Part shown: piece after piece, positions 336 to 15,015 of the stretch
Layout: each line of letters begins with the position of its first letter
How positions within the stretch are numbered: position 1 is the stretch's first letter
Assembly (NCBI GenBank): GCA_001563335.1
Contig: LRSL01000020.1
Coordinates: 1-24,189 of the forward strand
Direction: 5' to 3'
DNA: 24,189 bases
Source: Candidatus Thorarchaeota archaeon SMTZ1-45
GTDB taxonomy: Archaea > Asgardarchaeota > Thorarchaeia > Thorarchaeales > Thorarchaeaceae
Notes under the pieces: model-generated
What the model was told of the DNA's origin: nothing
The model's database searches: none
What the model saw: only the letters and a program-made list of their open reading frames with translations
Position numbers and translations under genes: made by a program

Positions 336-1046
336 GTGCTGTGGTTGGTGGATGAAGACATCAAGAAGAGCATAATGCAGGACATATATGAAAATAGGAT
401 GCTTCTGACATCCATCCGCGATAAGCCAGAGGGCTGGACACTATACTCTGGTTTGTGGAGTCCTTTCTATATTCAACTACGAATCCTCTCTTCATTCCCT
501 GTAACTCTCAAAAAGATTGGTCAAGCTCTGGGAACCCTCGTTAAGGAGGAAGCACCCCATATCAACAGACTTGTGGGTGTAGCGTTTGCTGGAATTCCAA
601 TCGCAACAGCAATGTCGATCTCAACAGGAATTCCTGCATGTCATACACGTAAGATACTCGGTGTCAGAACTGAGCAGGAACTGGAGAATGCTATCAGTAA
701 ATATGGGCAGCACTCACTCCTAGAGGGTGATGTCGAAGAGGGTGATACTATCTGTCTTGTTGATGATCTTGTGACAGGAATGGAGAGTAAGCTTGTTGCT
801 CGGGGTCAGGTCATTACAGAGCTAGAGAAACGAGGTATCACTGATTTTTCTGTCGATGACATCGCGGTGGTTGTGGATCGCCAACAGGGTGCACGACAGC
901 GTGCCAAAGAGCTGAAGATCAGGCTTCATTCTCTCATTAATCTGGTTGATGAAGGTCTTCCTCTGATTAGAGATAGAATGACCAAAGAGGAGTATAGAAT
1001 AGTTACAGAATATCTTACTGACCCGACTGGATTCAAGATGGAATGA
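336..1046 (+). CDS. pyrE: Orotate phosphoribosyltransferase-like type I PRTase
   Basis: N-terminal L.SG..SPFYI.LR motif, GVAFAGIPIA, PRPP-binding loop CLVDDLVTG, C-terminal VVVDRQQGA. True start could be GTG 348. Confidence 0.75.
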   Translation: MLWLVDEDIKKSIMQDIYENRMLLTSIRDKPEGWTLYSGLWSPFYIQLRILSSFPVTLKKIGQALGTLVKEEAPHINRLVGVAFAGIPIATAMSISTGIPACHTRKILGVRTEQELENAISKYGQHSLLEGDVEEGDTICLVDDLVTGMESKLVARGQVITELEKRGITDFSVDDIAVVVDRQQGARQRAKELKIRLHSLINLVDEGLPLIRDRMTKEEYRIVTEYLTDPTGFKME

Positions 1047-1109
1047 GTACATCACATCCAATGTACCACAGAAACCCATTTCTTAACAAAAGAAACTCCC
1101 TGCACAACT

Positions 1110-1562
1110 ATGAGTAGTAAGAATCCCCTTGACCCGCTATTGAACATGGCAATGGCGATGTCCACACGACACTATGAGTACTATAGTGAAACTGCAGAAC
1201 AGGTTCAGACTCCAAAGGTGAAGGCTCTACTGCTCGTTCTTGCTGAAACTGAGCAAGAACTAATCGCTCACATTCGTCACATGATGGTCACTGGAGTTCT
1301 TGATGAGATAGAGGTTTTGGATAGAGTTAAGGTGGGAGATGAACCACCAGACGACTCTCCAATCGCACCTGAGCGAAAAGACTCTGATCCTAGAATATTT
1401 GTCTGCAACAAGGCTTTGGAACAGGAGGTCAAAGGCTACACCTTCTATCTGTCTATTGCAGCCAGAGCAAAGACAGAGCTTGCTAGTCGTCTTTTTGAAT
1501 ACTTGGCTTTTGTTAAATCCCAGCAGATTGAACAAATCAGAAAGGTCTGTACGACCTTCTAA
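1110..1562 (+). CDS. Ferritin-like/rubrerythrin-like four-helix protein with degenerate diiron motifs (paralogue 1)
   Basis: Internal two-fold pattern YY...AE.....VK.LL..LA..E and ALEQE...Y.FY...A.......RLFEYLA typical of rubrerythrin-type ferritin-like proteins; the ExxH histidines are absent. Confidence 0.7.
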   Translation: MSSKNPLDPLLNMAMAMSTRHYEYYSETAEQVQTPKVKALLLVLAETEQELIAHIRHMMVTGVLDEIEVLDRVKVGDEPPDDSPIAPERKDSDPRIFVCNKALEQEVKGYTFYLSIAARAKTELASRLFEYLAFVKSQQIEQIRKVCTTF

Positions 1563-1628
1563 TGAAACATAATCCCAGTTGAATACCTAATAGAAAGTGC
1601 TTTCTTCTATAGTGTATTATGTTTTCCA

Positions 1629-2102
1629 ATGAGCGAAGCGACCTCTCACCAACATCTACTCAAGCTTGCATTGACAACCGCAGCCAATCAGTACGACTTC
1701 TATCTGAAAGCCGCTGACGCCGCCACCACACCCCAGGTAAAGGCACTTCTCATGGTACTGGCTGACACAGAAGGTGAACTCGTAGAGAGAATTCGCCTCA
1801 TGATGTCCACGGGTATTCTCGATGCAATTGAAGAGGTTGCCAAAGACACATTTTCATATGACGAGCCAGACCCAACTCCCTTCGGTATGGACCGGACTCC
1901 ATTTGCAAGGTCAAACCCAGACACTGATCCACGCCTCTATGTATGCAACAAAGCTCTAGAGAAAGAATTCTCAGGATTCACGTTCTACAGATCAATCAGC
2001 TCTCGAGCAAAGTCCGAAGTGATCAGACGCCTCTTTGAATACTTTGTATCGATCAAATCACAACAGATCAAGAGGATTCGCAGAGTCTGCTCCACTTTCT
2101 GA
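1629..2102 (+). CDS. Ferritin-like/rubrerythrin-like four-helix protein with degenerate diiron motifs (paralogue 2)
   Basis: Aligns by eye with 1110-1562 (TP.VKALL.VLA.TE.EL, DPR..VCNKALE.E, RLFEY, KSQQI..IR.VC.TF). Confidence 0.7.
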   Translation: MSEATSHQHLLKLALTTAANQYDFYLKAADAATTPQVKALLMVLADTEGELVERIRLMMSTGILDAIEEVAKDTFSYDEPDPTPFGMDRTPFARSNPDTDPRLYVCNKALEKEFSGFTFYRSISSRAKSEVIRRLFEYFVSIKSQQIKRIRRVCSTF

Positions 2103-2142
2103 ACTCATCTATTTACTCACGTTAGAATTGTTATTTATGCTG

Positions 2143-2160
2143 TTAGAACACGTGTTCTAA
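2143..2160. promoter_or_regulatory. Perfect 18-bp palindrome, probable operator
   Basis: TTAGAACAC|GTGTTCTAA in an AT-rich intergenic region, about 45 bp upstream of a TTTATATA box. Confidence 0.55.
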
Positions 2161-2200
2161 TAGTTTATTTAGATAATTAACTATAAGAATAGATAATTAG

Positions 2201-2218
2201 AAATATTTATATATATTT
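2201..2218 (+). promoter_or_regulatory. Archaeal TATA box for the 2298 gene
   Basis: AAATATTTATATATATTT containing TTTATATA, followed by a GC-rich leader from about 2232. Confidence 0.5.
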
Positions 2219-2297
2219 GAAGCTATATACTAGGTGTGGCCGGGAGGCCGCAAACAAGAGGAGACCCTGAAAATCTCCATAGGAAACGAAGGGGATA

Positions 2298-2669
2298 GTG
2301 GGTTCTCAAAACAGCGAGATGGAAACCGTGAGTGACGAACAAAACATATTCATTCCTTCTGTACAGCTCAACAACCTTTCTGATTTCATGGAGATATCAA
2401 ATCAGGCTGCAATTATTGTCTACAGCCCTGAATATTACCAAGGCCCATTCATGGATGATCACAAAAGACTCCGAAGACTCACTCTGACTGCTGTCGGAGT
2501 AGAAAGGAAGGGTATACCTTTGACCTTCAGATACGTGCTTGATGATGTTAGGGATATTGATAGAATTGCGTCTGAAATCCTTAAGGATCTTGAGAGTCGA
2601 GGAAGCGTTGTTCAGGGCTCAATAGAGAAGTCACATTCTCTTGGTGAGTTACTAGCAACGTGGCCTTAG
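2298..2669 (+). CDS. Hypothetical protein (123 aa)
   Basis: Open frame with upstream AAGGGG purine stretch and TATA box; no recognisable motif; start could be ATG 2319. Confidence 0.7.
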   Translation: MGSQNSEMETVSDEQNIFIPSVQLNNLSDFMEISNQAAIIVYSPEYYQGPFMDDHKRLRRLTLTAVGVERKGIPLTFRYVLDDVRDIDRIASEILKDLESRGSVVQGSIEKSHSLGELLATWP

Positions 2670-2766
2670 GATGCGCCATAAAAAGCACCCACTCCTACTA
2701 GTTGGTACCGTCTCGCATCTACCGATACTGCTTTTTGTGTTTGTGTTAAGACAATAGTGAAGAACA

Positions 2767-3288
2767 GTGACCAAACCAGAACCAGCTGATATAATCGTAC
2801 CCCGCATTCTCAAACAGTACTCAGAGCGACCTCGGGGCTGGCACATAATGAGCTCCCCTCGAGGAGAGATGCTAATTCTCAGTTCTGATTCTGCATTTCA
2901 GCTGAAACTTATTCCACTAAATCCATACGAGTTCACAGGCGCTGGGGTTGAACTACCTGAGTCTTGTGATACGGTTGAATCAATTCGCGCTTCTCCAGAG
3001 TTTGGACTTCGCCCTCTTAGTGAGTCTGATTTGCAGGGTATCCTGAACTCAATCACTGGGGATGCAGGACCAAAGCTTAGTCTTAATGATATTTTGAAAC
3101 GAACTCCACACTCTATCGATGACATCTCCGCAGATATACCATCTCCAGTTCTCCGAGGTCCGGTACTGGTGAGACCAGAATTGGGTTCTCTTAGCCCTGA
3201 AATTTTGAGAAGGCAGATGTCCTTAGATCGATCAGCTGAGAAGACATTCAGGAAACGCTATCCTGAGCGTGCTGGGATGTATTTCTAG
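2767..3288 (+). CDS. Hypothetical archaeal protein (173 aa)
   Basis: Long ORF with protein-like composition (QLKLIPLNPYEFTGAG, PEFGLRPL); function unknown. Confidence 0.75.
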   Translation: MTKPEPADIIVPRILKQYSERPRGWHIMSSPRGEMLILSSDSAFQLKLIPLNPYEFTGAGVELPESCDTVESIRASPEFGLRPLSESDLQGILNSITGDAGPKLSLNDILKRTPHSIDDISADIPSPVLRGPVLVRPELGSLSPEILRRQMSLDRSAEKTFRKRYPERAGMYF

Positions 3289-3302
3289 CCAAAAAAGACT
3301 TG

Positions 3303-3330
3303 ATTTGAGATTGAGAAGGGAGTCTCAAAT
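3303..3330. other. Intergenic hairpin/inverted repeat
   Basis: ATTTGAGATT-gagaaggg-AGTCTCAAAT, 10-bp stem with one G.U, just after the 3288 stop. Confidence 0.4.
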
Positions 3331-3395
3331 ACCATCTGGCTTATCAAGCTCTTCAATGATTATTAGTATTTAACACAGAACAGGAACAAGAGATT

Positions 3396-5042
3396 ATGGA
3401 TTATGACATCATTATCAAAAATGGGAGAGTTATTGATGGTGCAGGTAATCCTTGGATGAAGTCAGATGTTGGAATTTTGGATGGACGGATTTCATCGGTG
3501 GGCGAACTAGGAATCTCCCAAGGCGAGCTTGTCATTGATGCCAGTGACTTAATAGTGACTCCAGGTTTCATTGATATTCATACACACTCGGACCTAACAC
3601 TCCTCATAAATCCTAAAGCAGAGAGCAAGGTGAGACAAGGTGTCACAACAGAGGTTCTGGGTAACTGTGGGACCAGTCCTGCTCCAACGAGTAATTTGAC
3701 ACTTGAGTTATTGAAAAAAACATGGGGGTCTGAGGCTGATGAAGTTGACTGGAGCTGGAAATCGTTTGGTGATTATCTGAAAAAAATCGAACAGCAAGGG
3801 ACAGCTATCAATGTCGTTGGACTTGTGGGACATGGAACAGTAAGAATTTCTGTGATGGGAGCTGAAAACAGGGCGCCTTCAGACTCTGAGCTAGCTGAAA
3901 TGAAGAAACTAGTTGCCAAGTCAATGTCTGATGGGGCTTTTGGTATGTCATCTGGTCTTGTCTATCTGCCTGGTTCGTTCGCAACTACAGACGAACTCGT
4001 TGAACTCTGCAAGATTGTTGCTAAGTATGAAGGTCTCTATACTTCTCATATTCGTGGCGAACGTGAAACCATTGTGGATGCACTCAAGGAAGCTATAGAA
4101 ATTGCTGAGAGGTCAGGAGCTCGTTTGCAAGTTTCACACAATTGTCCCAAATATGGCGCCCATGGGAAATTCGAGGAAATGTCAAAGCTCTATGATGATG
4201 CAAGAAGGAGAGGTGTGGACCTCACCATCGACAATGATGCACATACTGACCTCAACCCTCGGTTGAGCCAGGTGCTTCCACAATGGGCACAAGCAGGTGG
4301 CGACCAGGCTGCAGCGGAAAGACTTAGAGATCCTACTCTGCGAGAGCGCATCAAGCAGGAAACTCTCGATGATACACTTCCTGGACCAGGTTATGTTGGT
4401 CTAGTGAAGCATGGAAGATGGGACAGAATCTTTCTCCTTCATGCTGTCGAGAACGAATCCCTGATAGGCAAGAGCTTTGAGGAGATTGCATCGCTTAGAG
4501 GTCAAGAACCTATAGATGTCTACCTTGACTTAATTGTTGAGGAGGATGGCAACGCAAGTGCACTCTTCAATTACATAGACGAGGAAGATATCAGGGCATT
4601 ACTTAGGCATCCGCTAATGATGGTTTGCAGCGATGGGAACGCAGTTGCACCATATGGTGCTCTTGGCAAGATACAGGGTTATTGGCCTTGCTCCTATGGA
4701 GAGTATCCCTACATTCTTGAGAGGTATGTTCGGGAGGAGGGCGTATTGACCCTCCAAGAGGCAATTCGTAAGATGACCTCTTTTCCCGCTCAGAAGCTTG
4801 GGTTGCGTGACAGAGGACAGATACGTGAAGGAATGTGGGCGGACATTGTGATCTTCGATTTTGACAGGATTAGAGACCGAGCTACATGTCGATTTCCATA
4901 CACATTTCCTCTATCCAACTACCCACACAAATATCCTGAGGGGATTGAATTTGTCCTAGTAAACGGCCAGATCGTTGTGATAAAGGGAGAACATAAAGGC
5001 AAACTTGCTGGTCATGTGCTTCGACACAGCACAAGAAGGTAG
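3396..5042 (+). CDS. N-acyl-D-amino-acid deacylase (D-aminoacylase), amidohydrolase superfamily
   Basis: IIKNGRVIDGAG, PGFIDIHTHSD, GNCG, GHGTVR, SHIR, VSH, CSDG, AIRKMTSFPA, ADIVIFD motifs. Confidence 0.92.
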   Translation: MDYDIIIKNGRVIDGAGNPWMKSDVGILDGRISSVGELGISQGELVIDASDLIVTPGFIDIHTHSDLTLLINPKAESKVRQGVTTEVLGNCGTSPAPTSNLTLELLKKTWGSEADEVDWSWKSFGDYLKKIEQQGTAINVVGLVGHGTVRISVMGAENRAPSDSELAEMKKLVAKSMSDGAFGMSSGLVYLPGSFATTDELVELCKIVAKYEGLYTSHIRGERETIVDALKEAIEIAERSGARLQVSHNCPKYGAHGKFEEMSKLYDDARRRGVDLTIDNDAHTDLNPRLSQVLPQWAQAGGDQAAAERLRDPTLRERIKQETLDDTLPGPGYVGLVKHGRWDRIFLLHAVENESLIGKSFEEIASLRGQEPIDVYLDLIVEEDGNASALFNYIDEEDIRALLRHPLMMVCSDGNAVAPYGALGKIQGYWPCSYGEYPYILERYVREEGVLTLQEAIRKMTSFPAQKLGLRDRGQIREGMWADIVIFDFDRIRDRATCRFPYTFPLSNYPHKYPEGIEFVLVNGQIVVIKGEHKGKLAGHVLRHSTRR

Positions 5043-5215
5043 AGAACCTCAGAAGCCATATCCAAATCAAGAAGAATTCGTAGATAATATCTTTGAAAAG
5101 AAGTGGTGGTCGTATGAACTGCAGCTTTTCTCTTGTTTCCGTATCAAATAGTCTAATACAGATGTCTTATGTGCTTACGCGGTATGCAATATTATAGTAG
5201 ATAGGAGATAGTCTG

Positions 5216-5917
5216 ATGGATTTTCCCGATGATTTGAGATTTGCAGAGGAATCTTTGAAACAGGCTGAAAAAGAATTCTTGTCTGGAAATGATGGAATAG
5301 CTGAAGCTTTGTTAGTAAAATTATCTTCAGGACCCTTTACTTCAGATACTAAAATAGCACAAGAAAAGATACAGAATCTGGATGAGTCCCGTTATGTTAA
5401 ATGGAGTCGGTGGGTGAAAAAATATGAATTCTCAGCGTCATTCTGGAAGGACGAGGGATATCCAAGTATTGATACCACTACGCATCAAGCTAGCAATCCT
5501 GATTGGTATTCAAAAAGAACAGGAACTACAACATTTGTAAAGGATTTAATGATTCATCGAAAAATATTAGCACCTACTGTTAATGGCGAGCTAAAATCGC
5601 CTCCCACTCCGCTAGGCAAACCATCAAACAGATGGCTACTTGATTTTGTTGCTCTTTCCAGTCTGCGTCTTTCTTTGAAAAACCATTGGGAGAAATTGGT
5701 ACGAGATATAGTGATGAAACGACCCCAGACCAGTCTAGTACTTGTGGCTAAAAGACTAGGTCTGGAAATTCCAGAGGTTCTTGACATCGCCCGTAAAATC
5801 AGGAATTTAGATGATCGGGTGATTGAATATGATGTAAGTGACTCGAGTAAGAATTTGACATATATATGTAGAAAACCAGATTCCAGTTTGAATCCTTTAG
5901 TAGATATAACCCTATAA
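5216..5917 (+). CDS. Hypothetical protein (233 aa), possible C-terminal HTH-like segment
   Basis: Long ORF with RBS-like AGGAGA; looks more AT-rich than its neighbours; ends 25 nt from the tRNA-Val 3' end. Confidence 0.7.
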   Translation: MDFPDDLRFAEESLKQAEKEFLSGNDGIAEALLVKLSSGPFTSDTKIAQEKIQNLDESRYVKWSRWVKKYEFSASFWKDEGYPSIDTTTHQASNPDWYSKRTGTTTFVKDLMIHRKILAPTVNGELKSPPTPLGKPSNRWLLDFVALSSLRLSLKNHWEKLVRDIVMKRPQTSLVLVAKRLGLEIPEVLDIARKIRNLDDRVIEYDVSDSSKNLTYICRKPDSSLNPLVDITL

Positions 5918-5942
5918 ACATAACCCAACTTAGAACGAAGAA

Positions 5943-6112
5943 TGGTGGGCCGGGCGTGATTTGAACACGCGACCACCGCACGTTTGAACGCGCTTGCAAA
6001 TCAAGCGTATGTGTCAATGCGGTATCTAAGCCATTTCGCAAACGAATTTGCGATACTATAGCTGTTTCGCAAACGAATTTGCAAATCCATAGCCGGGCTA
6101 GACCACCGGCCC
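5943..6112 (-). tRNA. tRNA-Val(GAC) with encoded CCA; 30-nt canonical 37/38 intron (5982-6011) and 62-nt D-arm insert at 22/23 (6027-6088) made of two tandem 31-nt introns
   Basis: Mature reconstruction GGGCCGG TG GTCT AGCCCGGCTA TGAT A CCGCA TT GAC AG TGCGG TGGTC GCGTG TTCAAAT CACGC CCGGCCC A CCA (78 nt). BHB helix TTGA/TCAA at the canonical intron; TTTTTAAT about 30 nt upstream. Confidence 0.9.
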
Positions 6113-6165
6113 AGTGAGGTCTCTCTCCCTTGTTGACGATTAAAAACATTGCGACGCAGACTTGC

Positions 6166-6600
6166 TTATCTTCCAGTACTCCCGAAACCGCCTTCTCCCC
6201 TTTCAGTATCAGACAGTTCATCAACCTCTATGAACTCCACTTCGGGCACAGGACGAATCGCCAACTGACTAATGCGCATCCCCTTTGTGATCTTGAAGGA
6301 CTCCTCATTATGGTTTATCATGATGGTCTTAACCTCACCACGATATCCATTATCAATGGTCCCTGGCGTATTGAGGACTGTTATGCCCTCTTTTAGAGCA
6401 AGTCCGCTCCTAGGTCGTACCTGTCCCTCATATCCCATAGGTATCTCTACTGCAATTCCTGTGGGTACTGCAAAACGCTCTCCTGGTCTGAGTTCATAAT
6501 CTATCGTGGAAAAGAGGTCAAATGCAACATCTCCTCTCTTTGCTGCTTTCGGTATCTTTGCATCAGGAGAGAGTCGTTTGACTCGTACAGTCACAGTCAC
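6166..6600 (-). CDS. dut: Trimeric dUTP diphosphatase
   Basis: Motifs AFDL, RPRSGLA, PGTIDNGYRGEV, RISQL, RGEGGFGSTG. Confidence 0.96.
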   Translation of the reverse strand: MTVTVRVKRLSPDAKIPKAAKRGDVAFDLFSTIDYELRPGERFAVPTGIAVEIPMGYEGQVRPRSGLALKEGITVLNTPGTIDNGYRGEVKTIMINHNEESFKITKGMRISQLAIRPVPEVEFIEVDELSDTERGEGGFGSTGR

Positions 6601-6689
6601 CGATCACGCCTCTAATTCCAACACACTCCTCTGTCAGATATAGGTGTAGGTGATAATACAGCCTAATTGGTAACATTTATATACAAATA

Positions 6690-6734
6690 ATGTATAGTAC
6701 TATATATCGCACAGTACATTGTTACACACAATGT
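6690..6734. promoter_or_regulatory. Probable PadR operator(s) just downstream of a TATA box
   Basis: ATGT-atagtact-ATAT (6690-6705; contains the palindrome TATAGTACTATA) and inverted repeat ACATTGT-N5-ACAATGT (6716-6734), after TTTATATA at about 6676-6683. Confidence 0.5.
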
Positions 6735-6774
6735 CTGTAAGAACAATGATAAAAAAGAGGTAAACTAAGTGTCA

Positions 6775-7131
6775 ATGTCAAAAAAGACACAGGAAGAATT
6801 GGACCGATGGTCCAAGGAAGTAAAGCGAGGCGCTGTCACGCTGGCCATCCTTGCTCTTCTTAGCAAGAGGAGGGCGTACGGATATGAAGCTGTCAAGCTG
6901 CTCGACGAGAAGATGTCTTTCTTGGCTCTTGAGCAAGGCACAGTCTATCCTTTGCTAAGAAGACTGGAGAAACGTGAGCTCCTAAAGTCTGAGTGGGACT
7001 ATGAAGATCCTACCAAACCCAAGAAGTACTATGAAGTATCTGAAGAGGGTCTGAAGGCACTAGGAGCAATGACGCAGACCTGGTCTATTCTCTCACGTGA
7101 AATGAGGGATGTCGTAATGGAGGTTGAATAA
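6775..7131 (+). CDS. PadR-family transcriptional regulator
   Basis: RG...LAILALL....YGYE, GTVYPLLRRLEK, KKYYEVSEEG. Alternative GTG start at 6769. Confidence 0.93.
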   Translation: MSKKTQEELDRWSKEVKRGAVTLAILALLSKRRAYGYEAVKLLDEKMSFLALEQGTVYPLLRRLEKRELLKSEWDYEDPTKPKKYYEVSEEGLKALGAMTQTWSILSREMRDVVMEVE

Positions 7132-7133
7132 TA

Positions 7134-8252
7134 ATGAGTAGTAATGATCCATTGGAACTTATTGATCAATACCTTGACCGTGTTAGGTTGTATCTTCCTC
7201 TTGACAGTGAGGATGCAATCGTCGAACTTCAGACTCACTTGATTGAGGAGGCTGAGCGAATCGGCGGAGGCATAATGACTGCTGGCTCTGCCATGATGGC
7301 CATTGAGAGAATGGGTGATCCAAAGAGTGTCGCACATGAGTATGCTGGTTCTGGGAAGAAAGTTGGACCTGTACCAGCTGAATATGTGAACCCATTAAGT
7401 CGAATGCTTATAGTACTAGCTGGAGTTGCACTAGCTCTCATCGTTGGTTTTACAATGATTGGGGCTTCTTTAACTGAGTTGTTTGGAGCAGAAATCCAGA
7501 ACTGGCCTTTCAGCATTCCAGTCATGCTGATCATCAATGTGACTATCCTTCTGATAATAATTGGTGGAATATCTCTGCTTGATCGAAGCAAGCCACTGAC
7601 CGAGAAGACAACACTTGAAACCATATTTGGAATTGGTGTTGGAGGATTCAAGCCCAAGACGAAATGGGGGGCTGCTGGCGATTTCATCATGGGTCTGATT
7701 TGGGGCGTCATTCTGATGTTACCAGTTGTTACAGTACTCTACACTGCAGCATTCCAAGCTGTCTACCTTTACGTAGTAGTGTTTCTATTACTTGGTGCTG
7801 TCAGAGGTGCCCTCTTCTATATTTGGGGTGAGAACAATCTTAATCTGGCATTTGAGGCCATCCTCAGCGTGGTCTGGATTGGTCTGGCAGTAGTACTAGT
7901 CAACGTGGGTTGGCCAATTCAATATGTCTACGTCAATGAGGGTGGTTCTTGGAGTCTATTCAATCTTGTTGAATTCTTCCAGACCAACAATATACCGTTC
8001 ATTCCCTTTGACTGGATATGGGCTTTCATCATGTTCATAACAGTTGCAATATCTGTCTGGAGAATCATTGTTTCCAGCATGAAGATCACCATGCATCTTC
8101 GCGCTGGAAGAGGCATCTGGTGGCAAGGCAATTGGGGCGAGAAACGTCGCTTGAGGAAGCCTTTCTGGAAGAGAGTCTTGGGAGACCAGGATGCAGTCCA
8201 GAGTGGTACAACATATCACGATGGTTACATAGAACCTGAAGAGTCGCAATAG
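7134..8252 (+). CDS. Multi-pass membrane protein with N-terminal HAAS-like domain, partner of PadR
   Basis: IDQYLDRV...L...EL..HL.E......AIERMGDP..VA.EY N-terminus followed by about 6 hydrophobic segments; 2 nt after the padR stop. Confidence 0.85.
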   Translation: MSSNDPLELIDQYLDRVRLYLPLDSEDAIVELQTHLIEEAERIGGGIMTAGSAMMAIERMGDPKSVAHEYAGSGKKVGPVPAEYVNPLSRMLIVLAGVALALIVGFTMIGASLTELFGAEIQNWPFSIPVMLIINVTILLIIIGGISLLDRSKPLTEKTTLETIFGIGVGGFKPKTKWGAAGDFIMGLIWGVILMLPVVTVLYTAAFQAVYLYVVVFLLLGAVRGALFYIWGENNLNLAFEAILSVVWIGLAVVLVNVGWPIQYVYVNEGGSWSLFNLVEFFQTNNIPFIPFDWIWAFIMFITVAISVWRIIVSSMKITMHLRAGRGIWWQGNWGEKRRLRKPFWKRVLGDQDAVQSGTTYHDGYIEPEESQ

Positions 8253-8264
8253 ATAATCAATCCA

Positions 8265-8294
8265 TGGGGGTGCAATTCCCCCGCTTTTTTCTTT
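8265..8294 (+). terminator. Hairpin plus U-tract between convergent genes
   Basis: GGGGG-tgcaatt-CCCCC-gc-TTTTTT. Confidence 0.5.
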
Positions 8295-8307
8295 AGAATC
8301 AGTCAAC

Positions 8308-8508
8308 TTACTCCTCTTTTTGCTTCAACACACTCACGCCATAGAGAATGCAAAAGACAATGAAGAGTGTCCCAAGAAAAGCATAGTACCATGGGAAGAC
8401 GATGAACATAGCGATTACAAGTAACGCAAGAATGAATATAGCTAGTAGAACCATTACTAGGTCACTTTCTTCAATCCCTAGTGGAAGTATTCCCCATTCT
8501 ACACTCAT
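8308..8508 (-). CDS. Small two-TM membrane protein
   Basis: MSVEWGILPL...; two hydrophobic helices and a KQKEE tail. The ORF track extends it to 8538. Confidence 0.65.
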   Translation of the reverse strand: MSVEWGILPLGIEESDLVMVLLAIFILALLVIAMFIVFPWYYAFLGTLFIVFCILYGVSVLKQKEE

Positions 8509-8612
8509 ATTCAAACTCCTAGTTTTTGGACCCATCACAGTTTGATAAGAATAAACTGGTGATGGTATTCAATTATGCTGTTTAGCAAGAAACCTACTTG
8601 AAGCAGTAATAA

Positions 8613-8691
8613 TGGTGGGATGTGGTGGGTTTGAACCACCGATCTTCGCCATATAAGAGCAATGTCATTCACCAAGCTAGACCAACATCCC
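8613..8691 (-). tRNA. tRNA with anticodon TAT (Ile-UAU) on a Val-type body; possibly a pseudogene
   Basis: GGGATGT TG GTCT AGCTTGGTGAA TGAC A TTGCT CT TAT AT GGCGA AGATC GGTGG TTCAAAC CCACC ACATCCC A CCA; full cloverleaf with two G.U pairs in the anticodon stem. Confidence 0.75.
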
Positions 8692-8693
8692 AT

Positions 8694-8767
8694 TGGTAGG
8701 CCAGGAAGGACTGGAACCTTCGATCTTCGCCATATCAGAGAGATGTCATTCGCTAGACCACTGGCCT
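8694..8767 (-). tRNA. Degenerate tRNA with anticodon GAT (Ile) on a Val-type body; likely a pseudogene
   Basis: AGGCCAG TG GTCT AGCGAA TGAC A TCTCT CT GAT AT GGCGA AGATC GAAGG TTCCAGT CCTTC CTGGCCT A CCA; D-loop lacks G18G19, T.C mismatch in the anticodon stem, T-loop TTCCAGT. Confidence 0.65.
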
Positions 8768-8868
8768 TTCACTTAGTCAAAACAAGAAACCTGAATCGGA
8801 GTCATAACAATACTATGCATTTTATATGATTTCAATTGATGTCATCTAAATCATCAAACCAAATCTTG

Positions 8869-8943
8869 TGATTTAATATAAATCAGTGGTCAACCAGAGC
8901 TAGCCCAAATGGTCGCATAACAAATTTATTAACTATTGTTAAT
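8869..8943. promoter_or_regulatory. Inverted repeats upstream of the FTR1 gene, possible metal-repressor operators
   Basis: TGATTTA-ata-TAAATCA (8869-8885) and ATTAAC-tatt-GTTAAT (8928-8943), the latter overlapping TTTATTA. Confidence 0.4.
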
Positions 8944-8962
8944 GGATTCTATGTGACTAGCT

Positions 8963-9850
8963 ATGATAATCTCACCCACTATCATTTCACTTAGAGAAGG
9001 TATAGAAGCCGCCCTCATAATAGCAATAATGTTATCCTATCTTAGGAAGACCTACCAAACGGATCTACGAAGATACGTGGTAAGAGGCACGATTTTTGCA
9101 ATATTTACCAGTCTAGGTGCGGCTATTGTTGTTGGAGTACTCTGGGGGATATTCGAAGGACCACTTCTGAATGTCTTCGAAGGTTCTGTTGTCCTCATTG
9201 CAGCAATCCTTCTCACTACAATGATTGTGTGGATGTGGAATGCTGGTGCCAAGATTACTCAAGAAATTGAGGAATCCATGGAAAGGTCTGTCACTCAACA
9301 GAGTGGAATAGGTCTTGCACTTCTGAGTTTCTCACTTGTTTTGAGAGAAGGGGTAGAGCTCTCTCTCTTCAGTATGGCACTTGTAATTCAAGAAGGAATT
9401 CAAAGTTACATTGGAATTGTTCTTGGTCTATCACTTGCTGTGATATTGGGTATAGGTTTCTACATGGGCTCTCTCAGAATCAGTTTGAAGGTGCTCTTCA
9501 AATGGACTTCCATATTTCTTATCCTGTTTGCTGCTGGGATGATTGCATATGGTATTCACGAGCTACAGGAGGCTGGTTTGCTCCTGATTGGGCCGCTTGA
9601 GATCTGGAATATCAATCCACCACTCTTGCCTGGTGGTGAATATCCATTATTACATGAGAACGGTCTAATCGGTGGAATGGCAAAGGCATTGTTTGGATAC
9701 AATGGTAATCCATCCGCACTAGAAGTAGTTGGATATGTCGCCTACTTGGGTATAGCTATTACATACTTGTTGTTGAAACAGAAGGGACTGAGTTCAAAAT
9801 TAGCTGGGGCCAAGAAACAAGCCATGCCTATTGCTATGCATGAGCAGTAG
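8963..9850 (+). CDS. FTR1/EfeU-family iron permease
   Basis: Two RExxE motifs (LREGIEA, LREGVEL), about 7 TM segments, GIHELQEAG, ALFGY. Confidence 0.93.
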   Translation: MIISPTIISLREGIEAALIIAIMLSYLRKTYQTDLRRYVVRGTIFAIFTSLGAAIVVGVLWGIFEGPLLNVFEGSVVLIAAILLTTMIVWMWNAGAKITQEIEESMERSVTQQSGIGLALLSFSLVLREGVELSLFSMALVIQEGIQSYIGIVLGLSLAVILGIGFYMGSLRISLKVLFKWTSIFLILFAAGMIAYGIHELQEAGLLLIGPLEIWNINPPLLPGGEYPLLHENGLIGGMAKALFGYNGNPSALEVVGYVAYLGIAITYLLLKQKGLSSKLAGAKKQAMPIAMHEQ

Positions 9851-10309
9851 TCATGTATAATCTTTCATCAATCCCCACTCTTCCACCTTGCTTTCTTCCG
9901 GTTTTCGAGCAATGAAATAAACCTTAATTCTCGCTTGATCCAACTTGGACTTTTTTTCGAATAATTTTCGATCACCAAAACGAAATGTTTCCAAAACAAG
10001 ACCAAGCTCTCTTCGAAAGACAGACTCCCTGAAACTAGAGGAACCAAGACCTCGACCAACCTCACAATAGACATGTAGTGTTGGTCCTTCTGTGTCATTT
10101 TTCCACTCTGCTAAGACTTCATCTCGCATTAATCGAGTGTACCACCCGCGTATCTGTTTCCTATCATAATCTGGTCCAATTGTCAAGAAAAGATCTCCAG
10201 TCCGATCAGAATGAGTTAGTGTATAGGTGCGTGGATGAATTGGTACCTCCTCGGTCGTAGGAGGATTAAACCGTACATGGAGTTTCTTTGGATTCAATCG
10301 TCGCATCAA
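9851..10309 (-). CDS. Staygreen (SGR)-family protein, Mg-dechelatase homologue
   Basis: LNPKKLHV, PRTYTLTHSDRTGDLFLTIG, RDEVLAEW, LHVYC, F.REL..VL......D, V.F......EEWG signature. Confidence 0.88.
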   Translation of the reverse strand: MMRRLNPKKLHVRFNPPTTEEVPIHPRTYTLTHSDRTGDLFLTIGPDYDRKQIRGWYTRLMRDEVLAEWKNDTEGPTLHVYCEVGRGLGSSSFRESVFRRELGLVLETFRFGDRKLFEKKSKLDQARIKVYFIARKPEESKVEEWGLMKDYT

Positions 10310-10390
10310 TCAATCAGTTTAAACTGGTCAATACCAGATAATTAGTCTTGATGTTGAACTAAAATCTCAAATGAGAAAAAATTGTTGAAA

Positions 10391-10497
10391 TGGTGCCGCG
10401 GCGCGGATTTTTCGGCCACAAACTCGTAGTGAGTCTATGTGAACCGCGGACAACACGGTCTTCAGCCGTGCGATCTCCCTGGCTGATCTACCGCGGC
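10391..10497 (-). tRNA. tRNA-Phe(GAA) with a 30-nt non-canonical T-loop intron at 56/57 (10411-10440) and encoded CCA
   Basis: GCCGCGG TA GATC AGCCAGGGA GATC G CACGG CT GAA GA CCGTG TTGTC CGCGG TTC|intron|AAAT CCGCG CCGCGGC A CCA; TTTATAT about 34 nt upstream and a T-tract downstream. Confidence 0.92.
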
Positions 10498-10555
10498 AGT
10501 GCCATTAATCAGTTCTCCACTGGTTATGTGATATAAAGATAACGCCATGGTTAGA

Positions 10556-11038
10556 TTACGCTAGTTTTTCAACTGCCAACTTCACTTCATCAAATGGCGG
10601 TAGCGTGCCAGGATTATCACTCACCCAAGTGTACACAACTGTCTTGTCTACATCAATAACAAAGACAGCTCTCTTTGCAACTTCACTCATACCTGCAAGA
10701 TTGTCAAGAACAACATCATAGTCCCTAATTACGGTTTTATCCCAGTCAGAGAGAAGTGGAAATTGAATATCGTTTGCTTCCTTGAACGCCTTATGACTGA
10801 AGATTCCGTCCACAGAGATACCCAGAACATTGGCTCCCATGTCATTGTAGTCAGCTAGCACATCTCTAAACCTACAAAGTTCCTCTTGACATACTGACGA
10901 GAAATCTGCAGGATAGAACACAAGCACTACTGGTCCTTTCAGGAGCTCTTCATTCAAAGTGACAGTCTTTCCTGGAGCTTCCAAGAGCGCAAACTCTGGA
11001 GCTTCACTTCCTACTTCCAATCCTGACAAGAATTGCAC
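10556..11038 (-). CDS. Peroxiredoxin (BCP/AhpE-like, AhpC/TSA family)
   Basis: APEF.L, FYPADFSSVC..E, GISVD, FPLLSD, KRAVFVID. Confidence 0.92.
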   Translation of the reverse strand: MQFLSGLEVGSEAPEFALLEAPGKTVTLNEELLKGPVVLVFYPADFSSVCQEELCRFRDVLADYNDMGANVLGISVDGIFSHKAFKEANDIQFPLLSDWDKTVIRDYDVVLDNLAGMSEVAKRAVFVIDVDKTVVYTWVSDNPGTLPPFDEVKLAVEKLA

Positions 11039-11095
11039 CCTAAGTAGTACGCGCTTTGCATGACTATTAAGATTTGAGATGCTACCAAGCTAAAT

Positions 11096-11623
11096 TCACT
11101 TGATCTTGTAGTTCATATAGCTTGCAATGAAGGCAGTCGCAATCGCTGCTACGTTAACTCCAAGTATATAGACGAATAATGGGTCAAGAAACGCAACAGT
11201 CGCAATCCATGATGGAAGATTACCAGCATCTGCAAAACCGAATGGAATAAAATAGAACAAGAAAAAGACACAGGTCAAGAGACCTACACCAACAAATGCA
11301 GGCATGTCTGTTTTAGACCGAGCGAATGCAGAGAGCCTACCAATCCAGTTTGTTTTGCCTCGTTGACGTCTGCGTGTTTTTCTCTTTGCTATGATGTGCG
11401 CCCAGCGATACATGGCTTCAGCCATGAGCATATATGAACCACCAAGAACCACCATGACGCCGATGGAAACCAAAATCTGAAGCTCCGCACTTAGAACATT
11501 CACGTAAACCTGTGCATGCCAAATGATTGGTATCTGAACAAAACCCGCAATTCCTAGAAACATCAAGATTAGTCCGGGTTTGCTACCGCGTCTCCACCAT
11601 ACTGCAAGGCTCATCATTTTCAC
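11096..11623 (-). CDS. Hypothetical four-TM membrane protein
   Basis: Four hydrophobic segments with a basic central loop (KRKTRRRQRGK). Confidence 0.75.
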   Translation of the reverse strand: MKMMSLAVWWRRGSKPGLILMFLGIAGFVQIPIIWHAQVYVNVLSAELQILVSIGVMVVLGGSYMLMAEAMYRWAHIIAKRKTRRRQRGKTNWIGRLSAFARSKTDMPAFVGVGLLTCVFFLFYFIPFGFADAGNLPSWIATVAFLDPLFVYILGVNVAAIATAFIASYMNYKIK

Positions 11624-11682
11624 CCAGCTTGTGACTGTCCGCTCAGATTTGAGTCTGTACTTTAAGGTTTTGGATTAAATAG

Positions 11683-12255
11683 CTACGACTTCTGTGATTC
11701 AACTTTGAACCACTCGCCATGGTCTTCACACTGGTGTAGATCAAATCCCACTTCTGAAACAATCTCCAAAATTCTTGGAAGAGTCTGGTTCTGTCCTCCT
11801 CTCAGACCATACCCAGTCTTGGATAGTGTTCCATCAGGGAAAGTAAAAGTAACCCAGAAAATTAGACTATCCCCAATTTCTGGAATGCGACTAGCCAGTA
11901 TTGATAGTTTACCATTCCTCTTGAGAACCCGATATGCCTCTTCAAGGACTGTACGTTTTGTGTTCCAGTCACTCATAAAACCCAGTGAGAACCATAAGGT
12001 CACAGTATCGAAAACTGAGTCCTTGAAACAAAGATGTCCACCATCTGCGACGAACCAATTTGATGAATTACCGTGAATCTGAGCCTCTTTAATCTCACTC
12101 ATTCTGATATCTAGAGCACAGACCCTCTCTCCCTCAATCCTAGACACAAGACCCTCTCCGCCACCCCCAATGTCTAAAATTAGACCTTCAGTGGTCACCC
12201 TTTCAAGTTTGATTTTTTGAGGAGGAGTCTCGATATGAGTTTGAGATTCCGACAT
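11683..12255 (-). CDS. Class I SAM-dependent methyltransferase
   Basis: ILDIGGGGEG motif I, ALD, FKDSVFDTV, EAYRVLK..G. Confidence 0.88.
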   Translation of the reverse strand: MSESQTHIETPPQKIKLERVTTEGLILDIGGGGEGLVSRIEGERVCALDIRMSEIKEAQIHGNSSNWFVADGGHLCFKDSVFDTVTLWFSLGFMSDWNTKRTVLEEAYRVLKRNGKLSILASRIPEIGDSLIFWVTFTFPDGTLSKTGYGLRGGQNQTLPRILEIVSEVGFDLHQCEDHGEWFKVESQKS

Positions 12256-12258
12256 GGT

Positions 12259-12888
12259 TTATTCCCCATCGACATCCTCTATAAAATCAGCCAAATCCTC
12301 GAGAATCTGATCAAAATTAGGTATATGCTCAAGTGCGTGTTGATGGGCTTCTTCGGCATCTCTGCTTCGTCCCTCCTCCTCATAAAAATTGATCAAATTC
12401 AACCATCCAACAAAGTGCTCTGGTCTAATCTCTATAGCCCTCTTCAATGCCTGTTCGGCTTCGTCAGTCCTTCCAAGATTAGAAAGGATGACACCTAGAT
12501 TACACCATGTATCAGAGTCCTCTGGATTTATCTCAGATGCCCTCCTGAATGCAACCTCTGCCTCCTCAAGTCGATCCGTGGCATTATAGACACACCCAAG
12601 ATTATACCACACATCTGACTCATCATTGTTATGCTCTAATGCTCCCTTGAGTGCCTGCTCCGCATCATCAAAGCGATTCTGGACAAATAATACAGCCCCC
12701 AAATCTCGCCATGCATCCACAAAAACGGGATTCAGGTCCAAAGCTGTTTGGAATGCAACCTCAGCCGCTTTCAAGTCCCCCTCATCATAATGAATTCCTC
12801 CAAGTTCATACCAGCTCTCTGGGTCTTTTGTATCCCTTTTCCTCTCTTGAAGTTCTTTACCTAGGGTTTCTCGGATTGAATCATTCAT
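12259..12888 (-). CDS. Tetratricopeptide repeat protein (about 5 TPRs)
   Basis: 34-aa periodic W..LG......A...F..A....P units. Confidence 0.92.
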   Translation of the reverse strand: MNDSIRETLGKELQERKRDTKDPESWYELGGIHYDEGDLKAAEVAFQTALDLNPVFVDAWRDLGAVLFVQNRFDDAEQALKGALEHNNDESDVWYNLGCVYNATDRLEEAEVAFRRASEINPEDSDTWCNLGVILSNLGRTDEAEQALKRAIEIRPEHFVGWLNLINFYEEEGRSRDAEEAHQHALEHIPNFDQILEDLADFIEDVDGE

Positions 12889-13025
12889 GTCTATTTCTCG
12901 CGTTGTGTCATCTAATATATCCTTGATTGTGTATCCCTCTTATCAAAAGTCTGAAAAAATGACCGAAAATAAGGAATATTACGTCGTTTCACAGACATGC
13001 ATAATGAGTAAAGGGCTTGAAAACA

Positions 13026-13655
13026 ATGGATCTCACAGATGTCACAAACATGATAATCGAGCTTGATATCGATAACGTAGCTAGTGCTGTTCAAGAGCAG
13101 ATTGATGCTGGCGCGAAACCACAGGATCTCCTGAAGGCACTCACAATAGGAATGGAAGAGGTGGGAAGAAGATACGAGAACGATGAGTACTTCCTTGCCG
13201 AGCTCGTTCTAGCTGGAGATACGATGAAAACAGCCTTTGAGATTCTCAAGCCACACTTAAAGTCTGATGCTGCTATTGATAAGTCGCCTATTGTTGCTGC
13301 TACTGTGAAAGGCGACAACCATGACATTGGTAAGAATATCCTAATCTCCATGCTTGTTTCTGCAGGTTTAGAAGTGGTTGACCTGGGCACGGATTGTCCC
13401 CCTGAGAAAATCGTTGAGGCTGTGAGGGAAACTAATGCGAAAGTTGTTGCACTCAGTGCTTTACTTACAATGACCATGAGAGAGATAGCTACAGTTGAAA
13501 AAGCACTCCGAGAAGCTGGTCTTCGGGATAGTGTGAAGATAATTGTGGGGGGTGCTCCACTCTCTATGGAACTTGCTAAGGAATTAGGGGCGGATGATTA
13601 TAGCCCAGATGCAATTGACGGAGTGAAACGGATTAAGGTTCTATTAGAGAAATAA
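13026..13655 (+). CDS. Corrinoid (B12-binding) methyltransferase protein
   Basis: N-terminal cap GMEEVG.RY...EYFLAEL, base-off motif GDNHDIGKN, DLG.D.PPE, SALLT.TM, VGGAP. The ORF track starts at TTG 13017. Confidence 0.93.
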   Translation: MDLTDVTNMIIELDIDNVASAVQEQIDAGAKPQDLLKALTIGMEEVGRRYENDEYFLAELVLAGDTMKTAFEILKPHLKSDAAIDKSPIVAATVKGDNHDIGKNILISMLVSAGLEVVDLGTDCPPEKIVEAVRETNAKVVALSALLTMTMREIATVEKALREAGLRDSVKIIVGGAPLSMELAKELGADDYSPDAIDGVKRIKVLLEK

Positions 13656-13792
13656 CATCTCCACAGTACCTGGATCATCTTCAGTCTTACCTGCAAAACA
13701 CACTTTGGCACATATGCACAATGCCTAAGACCACAAGTTGCTTTGGAATTACCACTGTGTGTCACATTATCGCTATCAGGGTGTGAGTACTT

Positions 13793-13999
13793 TTGGAAGA
13801 AGATGAGCCTGATCTCGAAACAGCGTTCAAGGTAGTAGCAATAATGCAGACGATAGCAGAAGACCTTGACGAGTCTGGAAAGAGAGCATGGCGTAAGATG
13901 CTCGGTATATCAACAAACAAATCTCCAGATGCTCACATCAAGAAAAAACAAAATCAATTCAAATCTGTTAAGAAATCAAGAAACACAAAAGGATCTTGA
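13793..13999 (+). CDS. Small hypothetical protein
   Basis: 68-aa ORF with TTG start; plausible N-terminal half and low-complexity basic tail; may be a remnant. Confidence 0.4.
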   Translation: MEEDEPDLETAFKVVAIMQTIAEDLDESGKRAWRKMLGISTNKSPDAHIKKKQNQFKSVKKSRNTKGS

Positions 14000-14034
14000 T
14001 TGAAGTCAATCTCCAAAAGATAATCGAGGACTAT

Positions 14035-15015
14035 ATGAATATGACTCAAGTAGGTGTCCCATTACCACTAGATAACAGCACATCGATTATTGACATAGGG
14101 TTCTTTGATGCTGCCGGTATCTTGTCAATCTATGTCATTAAAGGAGAACGTACATGCATTATTGACTCAGGAACTGATTCAGAGTTTCAGATGTTGTTTA
14201 ATGGGCTGAAAGAAGCAGATGCATATCCTCCTGACATTGTTGCTCTTACTCACTCTCACTATGACCATAGTCAAGGGGTACCAAAGCTAAGAGAACTGGC
14301 TGGAAAAGAGGGGCAGGAGATTGAAGTAGTAGCATCTCAAGTTGCAATCTCGTTGTTGGCAGATCAGTCCTATAACAGTGTGTTCAATGAAGAAGGGAAA
14401 TTTGTAGACATTACTGATGTAACACCTCTCAAAGAGGGCGATATAATTGATCTCGGTGGAGAAACACTCAAGGTATTTGCTACACCTGGACATTCCCAAG
14501 ATCAAATCTCATTTCTACACCAAGAGACTGGAAGGTTGTATGTTGGCGACTCATTAGGCATCTATTTGGGAGAAAACAGCTATGTCCCACCTTTCATGCC
14601 TCCAAGCTGGAACTTTGAGGCTTTTCAATCAACAATAAGTAAGTTGAAACAGATTGAATTCAAACAGATTTGTTTCGCCCACTTTGGATGCCTACCAGAG
14701 GAGAAATCTAAAGAGTTTCTCGATTTTGTGTTAGAACAGACCAAACTTTGGTGGAGTATTTTTGAGAAAGCAGATAATTCAGGAAGAGCCACTGACTATG
14801 ACCACCTCACCGAGAGAATCTTGGATGAATCAGGACTCACACTACCACATATTGAACTCTTGAGCGCGAAACTCAGGATTGGATTGAAGATTTTGAATGG
14901 TGTTAAAAAGATTAGAAGGAAACCGCCCCTTCTTGCTGCCCAAGTACTGATGCGCAACTATGTGATCCCTTGGTTGTCTAGGGGATACAAAATCTATAAG
15001 GAACACAAAATGTGA
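14035..15015 (+). CDS. MBL-fold metallo-hydrolase
   Basis: IIDSG, THSHYDHSQG (HxHxDH), TPGHS, VGD, FAHFG; GAGGA precedes ATG 14035 (ORF track start 13996). Confidence 0.9.
   Translation: MNMTQVGVPLPLDNSTSIIDIGFFDAAGILSIYVIKGERTCIIDSGTDSEFQMLFNGLKEADAYPPDIVALTHSHYDHSQGVPKLRELAGKEGQEIEVVASQVAISLLADQSYNSVFNEEGKFVDITDVTPLKEGDIIDLGGETLKVFATPGHSQDQISFLHQETGRLYVGDSLGIYLGENSYVPPFMPPSWNFEAFQSTISKLKQIEFKQICFAHFGCLPEEKSKEFLDFVLEQTKLWWSIFEKADNSGRATDYDHLTERILDESGLTLPHIELLSAKLRIGLKILNGVKKIRRKPPLLAAQVLMRNYVIPWLSRGYKIYKEHKM

Follow-up and report, generated by a model that had tools for sequence, protein, structure and literature searches.

A tandem pair of tRNA genes with isoleucine anticodons and valine-like bodies, candidate accessory decoders in one Thorarchaeota family

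Why does a Thorarchaeota genome carry, side by side, two tRNA genes whose anticodons (GAU and UAU) belong to isoleucine and whose bodies recall tRNA-Val? Archaea are thought to decode AUA by a CAU tRNA that is modified with agmatidine by TiaS or, where TiaS is lacking, by a UAU tRNA. According to the available text of two published studies, a UAU anticodon occurs in only 2 of 167 archaeal genomes (PMC6000648), and TAT genes are linked to the absence of tiaS (PMC3575796). The pair described here lies in a stretch of 24,189 bases, hereafter the window, which is the whole of contig C20 in the metagenome-assembled genome GCA_001563335.1 (labeled G000; 3.54 Mb in 119 contigs, 87.7% completeness, 5.8% contamination). 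Other G numbers denote genomes of relatives, L numbers denote loci of relatives, and C numbers denote contigs. tRNA genes were called with ARAGORN and with Rfam RF00005 at its gathering score of 29. The family sample held 86 genomes, with 28 in the genus of the window (G000 and 27 others), 17 in genus g3, and 7 in genus g4; the wider sample comprised 400 Asgard genomes together with viral contigs, GTDB species records, and metagenome contigs. We find the pair to be real, conserved, and unusual, and from sequence comparison we infer a function in decoding.

Results

Two adjacent genes with encoded CCA ends

Both genes lie on the minus strand. tRNA(GAU), at positions 8694-8767 (ARAGORN; Rfam RF00005, 50.2 bits, E = 3.3e-8), comes first in the order of transcription and tRNA(UAU), at 8613-8691 (ARAGORN; Rfam RF00005, 55.9 bits, E = 8.8e-10), comes second; each matches RF00005 over the full model length of 1-71 and above the gathering score. 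In the sequence, a 2-nt spacer (8692-8693, minus strand; AU when read as RNA) separates the CCA of the GAU gene from G1 of the UAU gene, the spacing is 1-2 nt in relatives too, and CCA is encoded in both genes, as in the other tRNA genes of G000. The first-pass annotation had described two CCA-ending cloverleaves 2 nt apart with three strings in common; ARAGORN and Rfam agree on the cloverleaves, and all three strings were found in both genes. The pair is presumably transcribed as a dicistronic precursor. In the upstream region (8768-8835, minus strand), alignment of ten genomes revealed conserved blocks, namely CAGGTYTCTTGTTTTG at ∼8-25 nt before the first tRNA (the GAU gene) and an A/T-rich block ∼46-65 nt upstream of it, which may form a promoter or leader.

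tRNA(UAU) has 79 nt, with G1-C72, A73, A37 after U36, and C32/U38. Its canonical 11-nt D-loop contains G18G19, its T-loop is UUCAAAC, and every canonical tertiary nucleotide is present, the elbow having G18, G19, U55, C56, and a purine at position 57. tRNA(GAU) has 74 nt, with A1-U72, A73, A37, and C32/U38; its D-loop is reduced to 6 nt (AGCGAA) with a single G and without G18G19, and its T-loop (UUCCAGU) carries C57. Positions 55 and 56 of tRNA(GAU) differ among species, which have the T-loops UUCCAGU, UUUCAGU, and UCUCAGU, as expected if the usual contacts between the D-loop and the T-loop are gone. A U29.C41 mismatch in the copy from the window is absent from the 8 other intact copies. The combination of C32 and U38 in both odd tRNAs is absent from the Val and canonical Ile tRNAs of the lineage. 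The annotation had pointed out that position 38 is U rather than the A usual in tRNA-Ile, and this is correct for both genes of the window; U38 occurs in 19 of 19 odd tRNAs and A38 in 14 of 14 canonical tRNA-Ile(GAU) sequences of the family. The G+C contents of the pair (0.49 and 0.53) are the lowest among 25 G000 tRNAs compared, the other 23 averaging 0.61 and going no lower than 0.55.

Single-sequence folding of the copies from the window paired GGUCU with AGAUC and gave no cloverleaf, with weak z-scores of -1.5 and -1.0, so that support for the cloverleaf comes from the covariance model and from the comparison between species. In this comparison, 98.9% of 180 cells were paired for tRNA(GAU) (9 intact copies) and 98.8% of 240 cells for tRNA(UAU) (12 sequences, with one compensatory change). 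That single two-sided change was all the covariation detected in the pair, no more than in shuffles, with variation too small for statistics.

The regular isoleucine set of the genome

The annotation had also proposed an inventory of tiaS and of the Ile and Val tRNA genes, and this yielded TiaS, tRNA-Ile(GAU), a CAU tRNA, and three Val genes. The only canonical tRNA-Ile(GAU) gene found in G000 (G000:C47:38186-38292, minus strand) was located by BLAST with the gene of a relative and bears an intron of ∼29 nt after the T-loop. The same query matched the anticodon-arm region in 9 of the 10 pair-bearers of the genus, the whole gene being read in G000, G015, and G021 only. Replacement of this tRNA by the pair was considered and rejected, as its seeming absence reflected a search pattern unable to span T-arm introns. 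Such introns are common in G000 (Ile(GAU), Val(CAC), and Phe) and defeat both standard tRNA finders and 3′-half patterns.

The CAU tRNA gene (G000:C55:73616-73692) has the acceptor GGGCCCG and A73, as in the canonical Ile gene, and the initiator tRNA is present as well. An archaeon is expected to have a third CAU tRNA, elongator Met or Ile2; three scans of the 88%-complete G000 assembly did not find it, so that the gene on C55 may be either of these two. At a locus of a relative (L097, G011:C252), a truncated second copy of the CAU tRNA (the first ∼50 nt; ∼2019-2070, minus strand) lies ∼500 nt from the intact gene and may be the scar of a tRNA-integrating element.

TiaS is encoded in G000 by an intact open frame of 444 aa that matches Pfam TiaS_FLD with 130 bits and the NCBIfam TiaS model with E = 6.3e-120 and 400.6 bits, which is under the strict cut-off of 600 for that model. 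The enzyme is present in 24 of the 28 genomes of the genus, including 8 of the 10 pair-bearers. The idea that the UAU tRNA stands in for a missing TiaS thus finds no support, since the enzyme occurs in G000 and through most of the genus and the CAU tRNA is kept.

The synthetase complement of G000 comprises one IleRS, one ValRS, one MetRS, and both an archaeal and a bacterial-type LeuRS. A second IleRS or ValRS dedicated to the pair was sought and dismissed: G000 has none, and the two IleRS types of the family do not track the pair. These two types occur within one genus and family-wide (e.g., G013:C14:66558-69290 and G018:C53:9645-12413), one being 66-100% identical to the IleRS of G000 and the other, whose frames measure 1117-1158 aa, ∼35% identical. 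In most genomes only one type is seen, which suggests that an essential synthetase has been displaced. The bacterial-type LeuRS (G000:C95:70212-73028, plus strand; TIGR00396, E = 1.6e-284 on 722 residues) is either a second LeuRS, beside the archaeal one on C29, or the product of a mis-binned contig.

With canonical tRNA-Ile(GAU), a CAU tRNA, TiaS, one IleRS, and one ValRS all in the same genome, the pair is supernumerary and replaces nothing; the three Val genes and the canonical Ile(GAU) gene all persist. Among 815 long ORFs, Ile codons make up 77.5 per 1000, and AUA accounts for 19.6 per 1000, or 25% of the Ile codons. The demand for isoleucine is high and AUA is no rare codon, against which stands the one canonical tRNA-Ile(GAU) gene found, itself interrupted.

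Affinities of the tRNA bodies

The tRNA-Val noted at position 5943 in the first reading is a real gene, tRNA-Val(GAC) (5943-6112, minus strand), which is split twice, by an intron in the D-arm and by a second that follows position 37; ARAGORN miscalls it as Lys, and at the gathering score Rfam does not detect it. Its D-arm intron of 61 nt contains a ∼20 nt direct repeat (GCAAATTCGTTTGCGAAA, twice) and shares TTTGCAA with the second intron. Another Val gene, tRNA-Val(CAC), lies at G000:C15:31187-31294 (plus strand), with an intron that falls within the T-loop or directly behind it.

Val and canonical Ile tRNAs of the family are mutual nearest relatives in the maximum likelihood (ML) tree. With the anticodon loop and CCA masked, tRNA(UAU) is best matched by Val(CAC) of G000 (50/69), with the nearest canonical Ile at 48/69, and tRNA(GAU) by a Val(UAC) from another family (48/67), just ahead of its nearest Ile (47/68); no further isotype exceeds an identity of 0.57 to either odd tRNA. 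Only at the pairs 6-67 and 11-24 do the 9 Val and the 14 canonical Ile sequences of the family divide cleanly. At 11-24, both odd tRNAs and Val have U11-A24 and canonical Ile has C11-G24. At 6-67, Val has G-C in 8 of 9 sequences and A-U in 1 of 9, canonical Ile has C6-G67 in 14 of 14, and the odd tRNAs have G6-C67 or, in the GAU member, the A6-U67 seen in one Val gene. The odd tRNAs also match the Val D-stem GUCU/UGAY with its U11-A24. None of the 19 odd sequences has the canonical Ile body (GGGCCCG, C6-G67, C11-G24, A38), and none of the intact copies has the Val anticodon NAC (A35, C36), all of them carrying U36.

A phylogeny of the tRNA bodies, one of the checks put forward with the annotation, placed both odd tRNAs with Val in the ML tree from 68 columns (29 rows, support 99/96) and left 13 Thorarchaeota Ile genes outside. 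A tree constrained to group the odd tRNAs with Ile was 11-12.5 log-likelihood units worse, although the AU test (p = 0.15-0.27) did not reject it. This result bears on a rival origin, in which the lineage's own tRNA-Ile(GAU) gave rise to the pair as diverged duplicates, one of them with U in place of G34, and the Val-like pairs are convergent. The anticodon arm speaks for such duplicates, being Ile-like in C32, U31.G39, and a 3′ strand of GGCGA plus AGAUC as in the Ile gene L125 of genus g5, to which overall identity (48/69 for UAU and 47/68 for GAU) comes near that of the best Val match; the AU test leaves room for them, and Korarchaeum tRNA-Ile(UAU) arose in such a way according to the available text of PMC6000648. 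The ML clade of odd and Val tRNAs (99/96), which leaves out all 13 Thorarchaeota Ile genes, the likelihood cost of the constrained tree, and the Val state of both discriminating base pairs weigh against duplication from Ile, which we consider very improbable and the least credible of the alternatives treated here.

Profile scores temper the valine affinity as well. On the Val profile the odd tRNAs score 58-77 bits, like Ala, Pro, and Thr genes, whereas true Val tRNAs score 106-126 bits, and both odd tRNAs are far from true Val and true Ile. A log-odds comparison of Val and Ile profiles (+25 to +42 bits on the Val side) was given little weight, since a control exposed a bias of the comparison, many unrelated isotypes favouring Val as well. 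The remolding from Val to Ile that the annotation proposed is only partly borne out: the tree and both discriminating pairs favour it, whereas the AU test, the near-tied identities, and the low Val-profile scores do not. On balance, we consider a valine-type origin of the bodies probable, with moderate confidence.

A further change of identity may have occurred in genus g3, where the tRNA(UAU) homologue of G090 (L169, C105, 2436-2514, minus strand) has the anticodon UUU and the discriminator G73. G73 is the discriminator of tRNA-Lys in this lineage, and the gene suggests, from one genome, that the scaffold switched identity toward Lys.

Selection, patchy distribution, and decay

Homologous pairs were found in 13 of 86 genomes of the family (G000 and 9 of the 27 other genomes of its genus, 2 of 17 in g3, and 1 of 7 in g4), in 12 of the 400 Asgard genomes, where every bearer belongs to the Thorarchaeota family, in 9 further GTDB species records, all Thorarchaeota, and in 11 metagenome contigs. 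An origin from other Asgard classes was rejected, as there was no match outside the family among the 400 genomes. Across ten genomes the mean identities of the two tRNAs are 91% and 94%; the flanks, compared as four 100-nt blocks per side, are 35-64% identical, the 100 nt upstream of the pair reaching a mean of 0.64 and the downstream flanks 0.35-0.53. This difference between genes and flanks in ten species indicates that both tRNAs are under selection.

All species whose copy of tRNA(UAU) is intact (10 of 10) have TAT, as do 11 of 11 metagenome contigs retrieved with an anticodon-masked pattern; this pattern required exact flanks and so favours well-kept copies. GAU is constant in 9 of 9 intact species copies. 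Decay of tRNA(GAU) was recorded in G022, L206/L207, L208, G086, and G090: the gene is broken and has a GAC loop in G022 and two metagenome contigs, is changed to UAU in one metagenome contig, has stem mismatches in another, and is degenerate in both g3 genomes. It is lost in G009. Homologues with a Val anticodon were considered as a possible ancestral state and set aside, GAC or UAC-like loops occurring only in broken copies (G022, L206/L207, and G009); we read these loops as secondary because their genomes nest among GAU/UAU bearers by IleRS identity. The UAU member is the better kept of the two, and it is probably the selected part of the pair. The weakened elbow and repeated loss of tRNA(GAU) fit its duplication of canonical tRNA-Ile(GAU) function.

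When genomes are ordered by IleRS identity to G000, bearers and non-bearers interleave, and the same intergenic region is without the pair in L021, L022, and L063, the closest FTR1 relatives of the window. The pair is thus dispensable, given its patchy distribution and its absence from the same site in these relatives. The annotation had suggested decaying acquired copies; this is at odds with ten species in which 91-94% identity contrasts with 35-64% in the flanks, and its kernel of truth is that decayed copies do exist in other lineages.

We considered in this light whether the pair is the remnant of a tRNA cluster from a mobile element or virus, decaying slowly in the descendants, with any function incidental. 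The genes are intron-less, while the three Val genes, Ile(GAU), Phe(GAA), and others are interrupted in G000; A1-U72, low G+C, the 2-nt spacing, the patchy distribution, and the decayed copies would also suit such a source, as would tRNA arrays of 9 and 11 genes, Ile(GAU) and Ile(UAU) among them, found on contigs that binning assigned to related genera. The search of viral contigs yielded 0 stretches that match the pair, and on this ground a viral origin was rejected. Furthermore, no mobile-element gene was seen among the 17 ORFs scanned at window positions 336-15015, the pair resembles the array tRNAs no more than it does chromosomal Val or Ile tRNAs (0.73 versus 0.74), and conservation across ten species is strong. 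We give descent from a mobile cluster a small chance. The arrays themselves, L200 (G072:C338:417-1411) and L201 (G081:C26, locus 1220-6122), hold 9 and 11 genes that are dense, intron-less, and low in G+C, with a resolvase, a TnpB-like gene, a bacterial-type CCA-adding enzyme, and an HNH endonuclease as neighbours; they are probably mobile-element or viral tRNA clusters.

A constant iron-permease neighbour

In all 8 loci that have both, the pair adjoins an FTR1 iron-permease gene in divergent orientation; in the window FTR1 occupies 8963-9850 (plus strand). A near-palindromic box, TTATTAACNATNGTTAA, lies just 5′ of the FTR1 start (8925-8945) and is conserved in 7 of 7 aligned loci; a metal-responsive repressor may use this box as its operator. 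Beyond FTR1 lies a Staygreen-family ORF (9851-10309, minus strand; full-length PF12638 match, E = 8.9e-45), a member in an Asgard archaeon of the plant Mg-dechelatase family, for which some relatives (e.g., L058) have no gene at that place. It is followed by a hidden tRNA-Phe(GAA) (10391-10497, minus strand), recognized from a 5′ 17-mer match and read by eye, that has a ∼29 nt intron within the T-loop and was missed by ARAGORN and by Rfam at the gathering score; in relatives an intron-less Phe gene directly follows FTR1. On the other side, 75 nt downstream of tRNA(UAU) and on the same strand, a small ORF (8308-8538, minus strand; 76 aa from GTG, or 66 aa from the ATG at 8508-8510) is predicted to encode a two-helix membrane protein and is conserved in relatives without the pair.

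The constancy of the FTR1 neighbour is one of the observations that would suit a role outside decoding for one or both RNAs, be it as an amino-acid donor, a regulator, a nuclease decoy, or a processing signal for neighbours. Others are the non-canonical elbow of tRNA(GAU), with its 6-nt D-loop devoid of G18G19, C57, and variable positions 55/56, the low G+C, and the patchiness and dispensability of the pair. Yet tRNA(UAU) keeps all canonical tertiary nucleotides and an invariant anticodon, which would be unneeded outside decoding, and no partner enzyme was recognized in the window. A non-decoding role is, in our estimation, improbable, although it is the least so of the rivals that we weigh against decoding.

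Discussion

The explanation that we favour, and to which we give an even chance of being right as a whole, is that the pair consists of accessory isoleucine decoders of one Thorarchaeota family, which would have come from Val-type genes shifted at position 36 from C to U. A C36-to-U change in Val-type tRNA genes would constitute an alloacceptor anticodon shift, and a Val-type tRNA with U36 would leave ValRS for the single IleRS of G000. tRNA(GAU) would then serve AUU and AUC, and tRNA(UAU) would serve AUA, as extra decoders on the ribosome, the latter offering a route to AUA that needs neither TiaS nor agmatine and runs alongside the normal TiaS route. Unmodified U34 would read AUG as well, which counts against our explanation; avoidance of AUG by tRNA(UAU) would depend on a modification of U34.

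Charging by IleRS is most likely because Ile and Val identity have A73 and A35 in common and differ mainly at position 36. The available text of PMC9976931 names the discriminator and the anticodon as strong determinants for Ile; for Val, A73 and A35 are again identity elements, joined there by C36. The same common determinants leave some scope for ambiguous decoding, in which ValRS would charge the pair partly or mainly and valine would enter at Ile codons as conservative statistical mistranslation. In its favour, both tRNAs have the Val state in the D-stem and at 6-67, efficient mischarging of tRNA-Ile by ValRS has been reported (PMC9976931, available text), and G000 has no extra IleRS or ValRS gene to police the pair. 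Set against this, conferring valine acceptance in Escherichia coli requires transplantation of a Val determinant set that includes C36 (PMC9976931, available text), whereas intact copies have U36; the strict maintenance of two different Ile anticodons fits recognition by IleRS, and conservation of 91-94% would not be expected of mistranslating genes. We rate mistranslation slightly below the mobile remnant in probability, and thus as rather unlikely.

If the bodies are indeed valine-type, the case differs from the classical form of remolding, at the end of which the ancestral gene is gone. The three Val genes and canonical tRNA-Ile(GAU) are still in place, so that the event would be duplication plus shift without replacement, on an archaeal chromosome. 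Alloacceptor remolding or anticodon shift is known from metazoan mitochondria and eukaryotic nuclei (PMC4783518 and PMC3923123, available text); in the main texts of the literature searched, we found no report of it in an archaeal chromosome. Likewise, we found neither the pair nor the co-occurrence of UAU and TiaS in Asgard archaea in these main texts, including a preprint on Asgard tRNA introns (10.64898/2026.10.13.758758).

The closest archaeal counterparts are the elongator tRNAs of Nanoarchaeum equitans and Korarchaeum cryptofilum, which likewise have a genomic UAU, A73, and A37 and are expected to read AUA directly. Unlike these organisms, G000 keeps TiaS and the CAU tRNA, making UAU an addition, and its UAU gene is Val-like rather than a copy of its own tRNA-Ile(GAU), intron-less, and in tandem with an odd GAU tRNA. 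A bacterial parallel reportedly comes from Fabret et al. (2011), a Bacillus subtilis tilS-deletion suppressor in which a tRNA-Ile gene was recruited to a UAU anticodon. That change took place in the laboratory, in response to losing the enzyme that modifies C34, and its starting point was tRNA-Ile1; the Thorarchaeota case is natural, the enzyme is still present beside it, and a Val-type gene appears to have been its source. In Bacillus subtilis, a point-changed tRNA gene with UAU reads AUA in the tilS-deletion suppressor (PMC3919564, available text).

The Thorarchaeota tRNA also resembles the minor tRNA-Ile(UAU) of eukaryotes in coexisting with a major Ile tRNA, and it does so in a relative of the eukaryotic host lineage. 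The eukaryotic tRNA-Ile(UAU) has an intron that is needed for pseudouridine at positions 34 and 36; the Thorarchaeota gene, by contrast, is intron-less. Since only one Thorarchaeota family has it (12 of 400 Asgard genomes), we regard the Thorarchaeota UAU as a recent parallel to the eukaryotic one and not as an ancestral trait.

A more far-reaching proposal, which we put forward tentatively and judge unlikely to hold in full, is that the pair is an evolvable cassette whose members would have passed from Val to Ile twice and to Lys in one relative, with the UAU member providing agmatidine-independent AUA decoding beside TiaS. If this proposal is true, the family would display the redundant intermediate that has to precede any loss of TiaS, in parallel with the way eukaryotes read AUA. 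Should the RNAs prove not to carry isoleucine, the pair would rather be a natural cause of ambiguity between Ile and Val, or else a tRNA-like RNA without a part in decoding. If the valine origin holds, the pair would be a natural example of archaeal chromosomal tRNAs whose acceptor identity was changed through the anticodon, and if both systems for AUA are kept, these Thorarchaeota would show how a swap of AUA decoders, of the kind that sets eukaryotes apart from TiaS-bearing archaea, can come about without a lethal gap.
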